Assembly (NCBI GenBank): GCA_965222155.1
Contig: CBDCTH010000012.1
Span: 2,016,001 to 2,080,000 of the forward strand
Direction of reading: 5' to 3'
Origin: Gammaproteobacteria bacterium
GTDB taxonomy: Bacteria; Pseudomonadota; Gammaproteobacteria; Eutrophobiales; Eutrophobiaceae
DNA: 64,000 nt
Shown piece after piece: positions 54,790 to 56,450 of the stretch (position 1 is the stretch's first letter; every line of letters starts with the position of its first letter). The position numbers and the translations under genes were made by a program. The notes under the pieces are model-generated. The model searched no databases and was not told the DNA's origin. It worked only from the letters and a program-made list of their open reading frames with translations.

Positions 54790-55086
54790 TCAGGCTGAGG
54801 CGGTACGATCAATTCGCTCAACTTCGATCTTGCCGACCCGCTTCAGCGCCTGGGCAAGGTTGTAGGCCGCCTGCATTCGGCACCACGTGGCCGCGCCACC
54901 GCCAAATGCTTTGTCGAGACGTATCGCCATCTCAGGTGAAATCCCCGAACGACCATTCACGACGTCCGATAGCTGCTTACGACTAACCCCAAGTTTGTTT
55001 GCTGCATCTGTCACGTTGAGCCCGAGAGGCTCCAGGCAATCGTAGCGGACAGACAGACCCGGATGAGGTGGATTCTTTATCGACAC
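54790..55086 (-). CDS. higA: HigA antitoxin
   Basis: [24 protein letters not shown]. Confidence 0.92.
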
Positions 55087-55098
55087 TTTAATATCCTC

Positions 55099-55377
55099 CT
55101 AATGGTAATCGGTCAGTTCTACATCATAGACGTTGACCCCTTCAAAACGGAATACGACACGCCAGTTACCGGATACATCAACCGCCCAGTATCCCGCATA
55201 ACTACCCTTCAAGGGATGTAGCCGAAAACCTGGCAGGTCCATGTCTGCCGGTCTGGCCGCTTCGTCCAAACGTGCGAGAATTCGCTCAACTTTGTCGACG
55301 TATTCAGGCTTTATCCGTCGCCGGTCTCCCTTGTCATAGAGGAGCTTGAGACCCTTGTGGCGAAAACTGATAATCAT
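55099..55377 (-). CDS. higB: HigB (RelE-like) toxin
   Basis: MIISFRHKGLK, LHPLKG, VSGNWRVVF, DYH. Confidence 0.92.
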   Translation of the reverse strand: MIISFRHKGLKLLYDKGDRRRIKPEYVDKVERILARLDEAARPADMDLPGFRLHPLKGSYAGYWAVDVSGNWRVVFRFEGVNVYDVELTDYH

Positions 55378-55475
55378 ATCCCAGTATGCCTTGTCACATC
55401 TCAGATTACAATCCGATATAAGGGGACCCCCCAGGGCAAACGCATACTTTTGAATTCAGATGTTTTTGCCCGATT

Positions 55476-55574
55476 CCGTCATTCTGGCGCAGGCCAGAAT
55501 CCAGTGAATAACCCTTCATTACCCTGAGCATGCGCTGTTGTTTGACTGGATGCTGGCATTCGCCAGCATGACGG
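55476..55574. repeat. GTCATTCTGGC..GAATCCAG palindromic element
   Basis: Same architecture as 12503-12641. Confidence 0.7.
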
Positions 55575-55801
55575 GCGGCGTTGTCCGGTTGGTTTCCTGT
55601 CATCTGCAACAGAATCCAAAAGTATGCGGCTTGACTGTTGAAAAGAAGACGGAACAAAACAGCCCCCAAACTCTCTTTCAATCCGGTTAGCGGGAGCTGC
55701 TGCCGGGAGGGCAAGGAACTGTCACTAAAAATCGAATTTGTTGTATATTGGCTGTCCTGTTATACTTGAACACTAGCTGAACTGAAAAGGAGGAAGTCGC
55801 C

Positions 55802-56450
55802 ATGGAAAATAAACTGCATCGAGAACCCGCCACATTCGAAAAAATCCGGGCTACCCTGGACCGGGTATCAGAGAAACAGGAGAAATTCGCCGCGGGGATA
55901 GAGGAGCTCAGGAGGCTCTCCAAGGAGGACAAAGAGCGGATGAAAAAGCTGGAAGAGTTGTTTACGGGTCAATGGGGCAAACTGATGGAAAGCCTGGTGG
56001 AGGGCGACCTGGTGGCCTTGCTACAGGCACGAGAGATCACTGTGGAGTGCACATATCCACGCGTGCGCGGCCAGCGCAATGGCGTCGAATACCTGGATGA
56101 AATCGCGGCGGGTGGGCCGGTGCACATATCCACGCGTGCGCGGCCAGCGCAATGGCGAGCATTACGAATTTGACATCCTGGCCGGGAATGGCGCCGAGCT
56201 GGTGGTGGTGGAAGTAAAGACCACGATGAAGGTCGGGGACGTGAGGTATTTTCTGGCGAAGCTGGATAGATTCACGCAATACCAGCCGCTCTACAAAGAC
56301 AAGCAGATCTATGGCGCGGTGGCGTATTTGAAGGCGGAGGATGCCTCAGACGTGTATGCGCAACGGCGGGGTTTGTACGTCATCCGGGCCACCGGCAGCA
56401 GCGCCAGCATCATCAACAAAGCAGACTTCCGGCCCCGGCTATTCAATTGA
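55802..56450 (+). pseudogene. coiled-coil plus PD-(D/E)xK-like protein disrupted by a 73-bp insertion
   Basis: WGKLMESLVE..EFDILA..VVVEVKTT..YGAVAY; removing 73 bp gives a single 576-nt ORF. Confidence 0.8.
56047..56157. repeat. 38-bp direct repeat / 35-bp unique spacer / 38-bp direct repeat
   Basis: GTGCACATATCCACGCGTGCGCGGCCAGCGCAATGGCG at 56047-56084 and 56120-56157. Confidence 0.9.

Follow-up and report, generated by a model that had tools for sequence, protein, structure and literature searches.

A Probable Natural Off-Target CRISPR Spacer Integration Scar in a Nuclease-Family Gene of a Gammaproteobacterial Genome

Introduction

To our knowledge, integration of spacers outside CRISPR arrays has been shown mainly with over-expressed Escherichia coli Cas1-Cas2 and in vitro, and natural fixed examples are few. 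The target duplications left by off-target integration in E. coli are reportedly 28 bp long. Direct duplication of the target also accompanies other insertions, covering 2-14 bp in the case of insertion sequences (IS) and approximately 14-15 bp in the case of casposons.

In the citing literature (PMC7054753, PMC6698737, PMC11788318, and bioRxiv 10.1101/148544), off-target Cas1-Cas2 integration in the E. coli genome is credited to Nivala et al. (2018), together with the idea that off-target integration can seed new arrays, and one of the citing papers refers to circumstantial evidence of off-target integration in two other species. Type III-A Cas1-Cas2 acting alone, without HU, is reported to be promiscuous in vitro (PMC13769266), and Cas1-Cas2 of P. 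furiosus carries out off-target integration in vitro at sites that share features of the repeat (PMC6698737). Both cases show that DNA other than CRISPR arrays is open to these integrases, whose fidelity depends on host factors or on motifs of the repeat.

Here, a 64-kb stretch of a gammaproteobacterial genome (C12:2016001-2080000, referred to as the window) was analyzed, which contains a repeat-insert-repeat structure within a gene at positions 56047-56157. Similar to the neo-CRISPR units of E. coli, as described in the citing papers, the structure consists of a spacer-length insert outside the arrays and a duplication of roughly repeat length in a genome with cas1 and cas2, and one related scar of this genome (C12:910036) carries a self-derived fragment. 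On the other hand, in comparison with the same descriptions, the present units are natural and formed without over-expression, and the systems concerned are of types III-A, I-G, and I-C rather than I-E. Moreover, the duplication measures 38 bp against repeats of 37 nt, the geometry varies slightly among the scars, and two of the scars inactivate genes. The in vitro III-A and P. furiosus cases are plasmid assays, whereas a fixed chromosomal scar is found here.

With canonical adaptation, the structure shares the repeat-spacer-repeat form of the product, the spacer length, and the junction bases GGA/GT (the slash marking the junction), which are found in two of the arrays. However, the "repeat" here belongs to the coding part of a host gene, is present in two copies only, and has neither a leader nor adjacent cas genes. 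As in transposon or casposon insertions, the inserted DNA is bounded by a direct target duplication, but this duplication is 38 bp long, and the 35-bp insert is single-copy, without coding capacity and without terminal inverted repeats. An IS, MITE, or transposon insertion was rejected on the basis of the single copy of the insert, the 38-bp duplication, and the fact that no inverted repeat was reported.

Structure of the Duplication and Insert

The coordinates of the main features are given in Table 1. The duplicated sequence, GTGCACATATCCACGCGTGCGCGGCCAGCGCAATGGCG, is identical in both copies, and the insert between them reads TCGAATACCTGGATGAAATCGCGGCGGGTGGGCCG. The bases adjoining the two copies differ both before (A and G) and after (T and A) the repeat, which fixes the length of the duplication at 38 bp and that of the insert at 35 bp. 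By arithmetic, the chance expectation of an exact 38-mer recurring within approximately 80 offsets in 64 kb is near 1e-16. A simple tandem duplication by slippage was rejected, since identity along the two units is not uniform, being 38/38 and then 15/35. The insert is present in a single copy in the 4.55-Mb genome, with no second copy at up to five mismatches; its longest exact word elsewhere in the genome is 17 nt (C12:1437767), and none of 18 nt or more was found. This 17-nt match, which reads MIYLDEIALP in a gene, was judged to be due to chance and rejected as the source of the insert.

As the gene stands, it is divided into two ORFs of 123 aa each, and excision of 73 bp (one repeat plus the insert) yields a 576-nt ORF of 191 aa. 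The duplicated target contains the hairpin TGCGC-GGCCA-GCGCA at 56064-56078, whose stem of 5 bp is unremarkable. The initial annotation had described an exact 38-bp duplication around 35 bp of unrelated DNA, a 73-bp gain that frameshifts the gene, a hairpin in the target, and a window without cas genes. The first three statements are borne out by the identical copies, the uniqueness of the insert in the genome, the effect of excision, and the literal presence of the hairpin; the last holds for cas1 and cas2, and the nearest locus, which is of type I-C, lies approximately 170 kb away.

Two other features were observed in this part of the window. Just upstream of the broken gene lies a MITE-like element of approximately 198 bp (55432-55629) with imperfect terminal inverted repeats of 22 nt, which is found at 98-99% identity at eight or more further genomic sites. 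On the minus strand at 54790-55377, two adjacent ORFs of 92 and 98 aa have the look of a HigB/HigA-type toxin-antitoxin pair by eye.

Table 1. Features of the broken gene, the related scars, and the CRISPR-Cas systems of the genome (positions without a contig prefix are those of the window).
Feature	Position	Strand	Description
Broken gene, 5' part	55802-56046	+	Coiled-coil N-terminus of an Hjc-like PD-(D/E)XK paralog; ORF 55802-56173
GGA/GT at upstream edge of duplication	56044-56048	+	Possible pseudo leader-repeat junction; 5-nt match to III-A/I-C arrays, weakly supporting
Duplicated target, copy 1	56047-56084	+	Coding sequence ..CTYPRVRGQRNG; exact repeat
Insert	56085-56119	+	Spacer-length, 35 bp, foreign to the assembled genome; single copy
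Duplicated target, copy 2	56120-56157	+	Identical to copy 1
Broken gene, 3' part	56158-56450	+	PD-(D/E)XK core EHYEFDILAG..VVVEVK to stop; ORF 56079-56450; Pfam Hjc, E 1.8e-4
Sister scar	C12:910036-910143 (L028:1036-1143)		Exact 37-bp duplication + 34-bp insert; inside a REP/MITE-like element
Sister scar	C4:228549-228647 (L027:2549-2647)		Exact 34-bp duplication + 31-bp unique insert with internal hairpin; splits an MmeI-family type IIL restriction-modification gene
Possible scar	C12:965582-965683 (L029:1082-1183)		Period 72; 30 exact + 42, or 36 with two mismatches + 36; last codons and stop of asnS
Type III-A locus			Cas10/Csm1 through Csm5, Cas1, Cas1-like fragment, Cas2 (NCBIfam)
Type I-G locus			Cas7g, Csb2, Cas3g in two ORFs, 578-aa Cas4g/Cas1g fusion, Cas2 (NCBIfam)
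Type I-C locus			Cas3, Cas5c, Cas8c, Cas7c (NCBIfam)
Type II (II-C) locus			Cas9-Cas1-Cas2 (NCBIfam)
III-A array			53 repeats of 37 nt; 52 spacers, mostly 35 nt (15), 36 nt (14), and 37 nt (8)
I-C array			28 repeats of 33 nt; 27 spacers of 34 nt (17), 35 nt (9), and 37 nt (1)
I-G array			3 repeats of 37-39 nt; periods 72 and 73; spacers of 35/36 nt

Support from Public Sequencing Runs

The stretch is present in four public runs (X1-X4) from two studies, which were examined in the form of Logan contigs. An assembly or sequencing artefact might be suspected in a highly repetitive gene family and in an assembly of 12 contigs with an estimated contamination of 7.3%, but several features of these runs speak against it. 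The unitig 56055-56114, which leads from copy 1 into the insert, has a depth of 116 in X2 and 230 in X3, where the flanks have depths of 110-115 and 201-207, respectively. The other junction is covered by unitigs leading from the insert to copy 2 (56095-56149) in X2 and X3, so that both junctions and the insert are found in the second study at flank depth, and a single X4 contig bridges positions 55945-56128. In X1, the 38-nt repeat unitig has a depth of 19.1, which is about twofold that of its flanks (9.9-16.5). Moreover, copy 1 has a C>T variant at 56052, which makes up approximately 45% of the depth in both X2 and X3 and is also carried by the X4 contig, in which it is absent from the matching base of copy 2; its confinement to copy 1 indicates copies that evolve separately. 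An artefact is hence hardly credible.

The two 38-bp copies have started to diverge in part of the population. The scar is real and, judging by depth, fixed, and it predates some of the strain divergence. Run depths gave no sign of an intact allele in the k-mer contigs, in which an intact allele and the scar are not separable because the repeat is longer than k.

The Broken Gene and Its Paralogs

A tblastn search of the genome with the read-through protein revealed approximately 22 full-length paralogs of the broken gene, with identities of 48-68%, in addition to fragments. Many of the paralogs are organized in tandem arrays (C12:934-941 kb and 1750-1752 kb; C1:30-42 kb). One intact paralog (L031:166-792) combines an N-terminal coiled coil, which matches coiled-coil families in the profile search, with a C-terminal domain that matches Hjc (PF01870, E 6.8e-5); with 23.2 bits against a cut-off of 21.1, the Hjc match just passes, and related PD-(D/E)XK families match more weakly.

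All 22 paralogs that span the target have an insert-free site, reading RNGEHYE(F/Y)DILA. Homologs were also detected in 22 of 22 genomes of the same genus, and DNA identity in 40 relatives reaches no more than 78%, which limits this comparison to the paralog level. In three of these relatives (G016, G015, and G004), the alignment of the homolog is in two segments whose overlap lies on a single target copy. The empty target is therefore found both at the paralog level (22/22) and at the homolog level (these three genomes), which implies that the scar is derived and that the broken copy is a pseudogene. No orthologous intact allele was found among the genomes of the relatives or the contigs of the public runs.

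With so many family copies, a considerable part of them arrayed in tandem, the paralogs themselves could be thought to have produced the structure, by gene conversion, by unequal recombination, or by a 73-bp tandem duplication whose second half diverged later; derivation of the insert from a paralog had also been named for checking in the initial annotation. Such an origin could draw on the imperfect 59/65-bp tandem duplication in the paralog at C10:80250-80520 and on the loose resemblance of the in-frame insert VEYLDEIAAGGP to the native next 12 codons EHYEFDILAGNG, the two agreeing at 15 of 35 bases. Of 200,000 random 35-mers from the genome, 2.0% are at least this similar (p ~0.02), and the likeness between the insert and the native next 35 bp was treated as chance. 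Several observations argue against a paralog-driven origin. The insert is carried by none of the 22 paralogs, and the absence of any of its words of at least 18 nt extends to the whole genome. A tandem duplication cannot leave one stretch of 38 bp unchanged and let the neighbouring 35 bp drop to 43% identity, and the frame of the insert lacks the E-x-K of the nuclease motif. In addition, the outside DNA that appears to match the insert starts at its first base and continues unlike the gene (see below). We regard a paralog-driven origin as very improbable.

Source of the Insert

The run contigs also contain traces of another molecule that shares the insert. The unitig 56055-56114 ends exactly 30 nt (k-1) past 56084, and a second path thus enters the graph at 56085. 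Contigs of X1, X2, and X3 depart from the stretch after 56118 with an identical series of 30 unrelated letters. In X1, the two depth bins that cover the insert (4.27 and 7.15) are accounted for exactly, by arithmetic, with one record of depth 6.3 on 56085-56118 plus its neighbours. From these contig ends and the depth arithmetic, we infer that other DNA in the samples matches the insert from its first base over 34 of 35 bases and then differs, which makes it a candidate protospacer. The last insert base (56119) is G, compared with A in the candidate source, whose 3' flank reads ATCTTCC. By a count made by hand, the letters that follow in the candidate source agree with the native continuation of the gene at 7 of 30 positions.

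Both parts of this candidate were sought in other sequence collections. The 30-letter continuation is absent from the genome itself at up to three mismatches, had no match in the viral contig collection, and had none as a degenerate pattern in the genome contig collection. For the insert, the exact 35-mer gave 0 matches in the viral and genome contig collections, and among 401 genomes of the class, its 34-mer, at up to three mismatches, occurred in one only, namely that of the window. In the BLAST comparison with host, phage, and plasmid sequences that the initial annotation had suggested, the insert was single-copy in the host, and blastn gave no match in phages and only a 21-nt match (E 0.08) in a plasmid. 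A codon-degenerate pattern of the insert gave 0 matches in viral contigs and one in metagenome contigs (L021). The latter is a glutathione S-transferase gene reading IIEYLDDIAAGGPKLIP, which matches the pattern-fixed bases only and then diverges, and it was rejected as the source.

CRISPR-Cas Systems of the Genome

The genome contains five matches to Cas1 (PF01867) and five to Cas2 (PF09827), all above the Pfam cut-offs and all located outside the window. Four systems were typed with NCBIfam, namely III-A, I-C, I-G, and II-C (Table 1), and no array was found beside the II-C locus. The dimensions of the scar (38 + 35 = 73) agree with the III-A and I-G arrays, which have periods of 72-73, to within 1 nt. 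The duplication is 1 nt longer than the 37-nt repeats of these two systems; a 38-nt reading of the I-G repeat requires the counting of one base that differs in the third copy of that array.

The upstream edge of the target (..TGTGGA/GTGCA) can be compared with the leader-repeat junctions of the III-A (..TGAGGA/GTTTG) and I-C (..ATGGGA/GTCGC) arrays. In overall sequence, the target has no match to the III-A, I-C, or I-G repeats at up to six mismatches, and an alignment by eye with the I-G repeat gave approximately 13 of 38 bases alike. Compared with a bona fide CRISPR array, the structure has two copies only, its repeat is conserved coding sequence, and this repeat matches none of the three repeats of the genome. 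A search for self-targets of the real spacers in the genome revealed nothing beyond an 18-nt match.

Related Scars in the Genome

The genome was scanned for direct repeats that stand alone as two copies around unrelated DNA. Altogether, 24 unique, isolated direct repeats measuring 14 nt or more were found at periods of 40-130, and those of at least 30 nt have periods of 65, 72, 73, and 125 only. The genome holds at least two more scars besides that at 56047-56157, amounting to three to four in all; these sister scars are known from the assembly.

The first of them (C12:910036) interrupts an element whose related copies are uninterrupted. Its insert is a copy from an SDR oxidoreductase gene (C12:2768862-2768896; L030:862-896) located 1.86 Mb away. 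Insert and source share 32 contiguous bases, and the whole match can be read either as 33/34 ungapped or as a copy of a 35-nt source with one C missing from a C5 run. The match begins at the first base of the insert, the flanks are unrelated, and junction microhomology is at most 1 nt; a protospacer copied with a sharp boundary is thereby found for this scar. The source is flanked by ATA upstream, or by ACC in the other orientation, which we take not to be PAMs of types I-C or I-G. Type III-A systems are not known to require a PAM.

At the second sister scar (C4:228549), excision of 65 bp results in a reading frame of 923 aa or more; its two halves contain, in order, the MmeI N-terminal, helicase-spacer, methyltransferase, TRD, and C-terminal domains. 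The possible scar at C12:965582 leaves asnS intact. The inserts of these two units (C4:228583 and C12:965612) had no exact match in viral contigs.

Other candidates of the scan were set aside. C10:80337 lies in another paralog of the same family as the broken gene (C10:80250-80520), where the gene is disrupted by an imperfect tandem duplication of the ordinary kind, with a period of 59/65. C4:55142 (35 + 8) sits in a local complex repeat, and C12:1709107 (33 + 92) was not counted as a scar. Many further candidates are internal repeats of REP/MITE-like elements. Fourteen units with short duplications look like ordinary repeats and were likewise not counted; most of the short duplications are ordinary in-gene repeats, as their excision shortens the ORF. 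At C11:12995-13084, a 17-bp duplication surrounds a 56-bp insert holding a REP-type hairpin that is common at many genomic sites, with a total of 73 nt, and this unit may belong to a different insertion process.

The sizes of these units raise the question of a Cas-independent process, such as template switching or another integrase, which would add a copied fragment together with a compensating target duplication to a total of approximately 72 nt. Three units total 73, 71, and 72; the last is split 30 + 42 if only exact matches are taken, the C11:12995 unit reaches the same 73 with a much shorter duplication, and one insert was copied from the genome's own DNA, all of which would suit such a process. 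However, 72-73 nt is also the period of the genome's own CRISPR arrays, so the total does not discriminate between the two origins, and one clean scar totals 65. The 30 + 42 unit can equally be read as 36 + 36 with two mismatches. Moreover, the short duplications among the 24 repeats (periods 40-130) are not clustered at 72-73, where one only is found, and the junctions lack microhomology of the template-switching type. A Cas-independent process is thus considered unlikely. It is also rather doubtful that an undescribed process of this lineage, other than Cas1-Cas2, pastes a short copy of any DNA and duplicates the target with an addition of approximately 72 nt. If such a process did exist, its likeness in length to a CRISPR unit could hint at how repeat-spacer units first arose.

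Proposed Origin and Significance

Natural off-target (non-canonical) spacer integration by Cas1-Cas2 is the probable origin of the 56047-56157 scar, Cas1-Cas2 catalysis and the responsible module both being presumptive. We know of no other enzyme that pastes a spacer-length fragment and produces a staggered, repeat-length target duplication without junction microhomology, and this combination thus points to a Cas1-Cas2 footprint. The initial annotation had arrived at a neo-CRISPR scar and had proposed that the CRISPR-Cas type, the repeat and spacer lengths, the presence of cas1/cas2, and the read support be checked. Each of these has turned out in favour of its reading: five Cas1 and five Cas2 matches and four typed systems are present, the lengths fit (III-A with 37-nt repeats and modal 35/36-nt spacers, I-G with a period of 72/73), and the insert is found at flank depth in Logan contigs from two studies. 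The insert-free paralogs and the sister scars provide additional support.

In the proposed mechanism, Cas1-Cas2 of this genome would have been loaded with a prespacer of approximately 35 nt from another DNA molecule, and the loaded integrase would have attacked a non-CRISPR site within one paralog of the Hjc-like nuclease family. Two strand transfers, staggered by about one repeat length, may then have been followed by gap repair, which would have doubled the 38-bp target and left one copy on each side of the insert. The resulting gain of 73 bp would have shifted the reading frame and turned the paralog into a pseudogene. The new repeat-spacer-repeat unit is probably inert, since its repeats are coding sequence unlike any CRISPR repeat of the genome.

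With regard to the enzyme, the adaptation module of the III-A or the I-G system is most likely, both having 37-nt repeats and 35-36-nt spacers. The 5-nt GGA/GT match, together with the 37-nt repeat and the modal 35-nt spacers, points tentatively to the III-A module; the I-G module fits the scar lengths equally well. When the scars of 37 + 34 and 34 + 31 are considered besides that of 38 + 35, no single module explains all of them. The 34 + 31 scar fits no array exactly, and its agreement with the I-C array (33 + 34/35) is only loose.

As a product of off-target integration, the scar is a natural member of this kind with unusually good internal controls, including the empty sites of the paralogs, four typed systems, the sister scars, and one identified self protospacer. 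The presence of three to four scars beside four systems, two of them gene-inactivating, would provide direct evidence that CRISPR adaptation costs mutations in the wild, apart from autoimmunity. More speculatively, ectopic integration may be recurrent enough in the lineage to represent a mutational force that disables defence-type genes, such as the MmeI-type restriction enzyme and the nuclease paralog. The scars may also serve as material for studying the sequence features that mislead the integrase and the birth of new repeat-spacer units. Moreover, targets whose intact paralogs offer ready empty sites would be convenient substrates for integration assays.

Several features of the CRISPR-Cas systems themselves were also observed. 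In the regions C12:3348000-3367999 (L024) and C12:3044000-3063999 (L026), which hold the I-G and type II loci, the I-G cas3 gene is read as two overlapping ORFs of 512 and 543 aa, and the 960-aa Cas9 of the type II system matches its model from position 148 onward only. The I-G system, with its split cas3 and three-repeat array, and the type II system, with a partial Cas9 and no array, may be decaying. In addition, spacer 9 of the III-A array (C12:583135) and spacer 8 of the I-C array (C12:2252106) share 24 of 26 bases in opposite orientation, which suggests, as far as the sequences indicate, that the two systems may both have sampled one invader.
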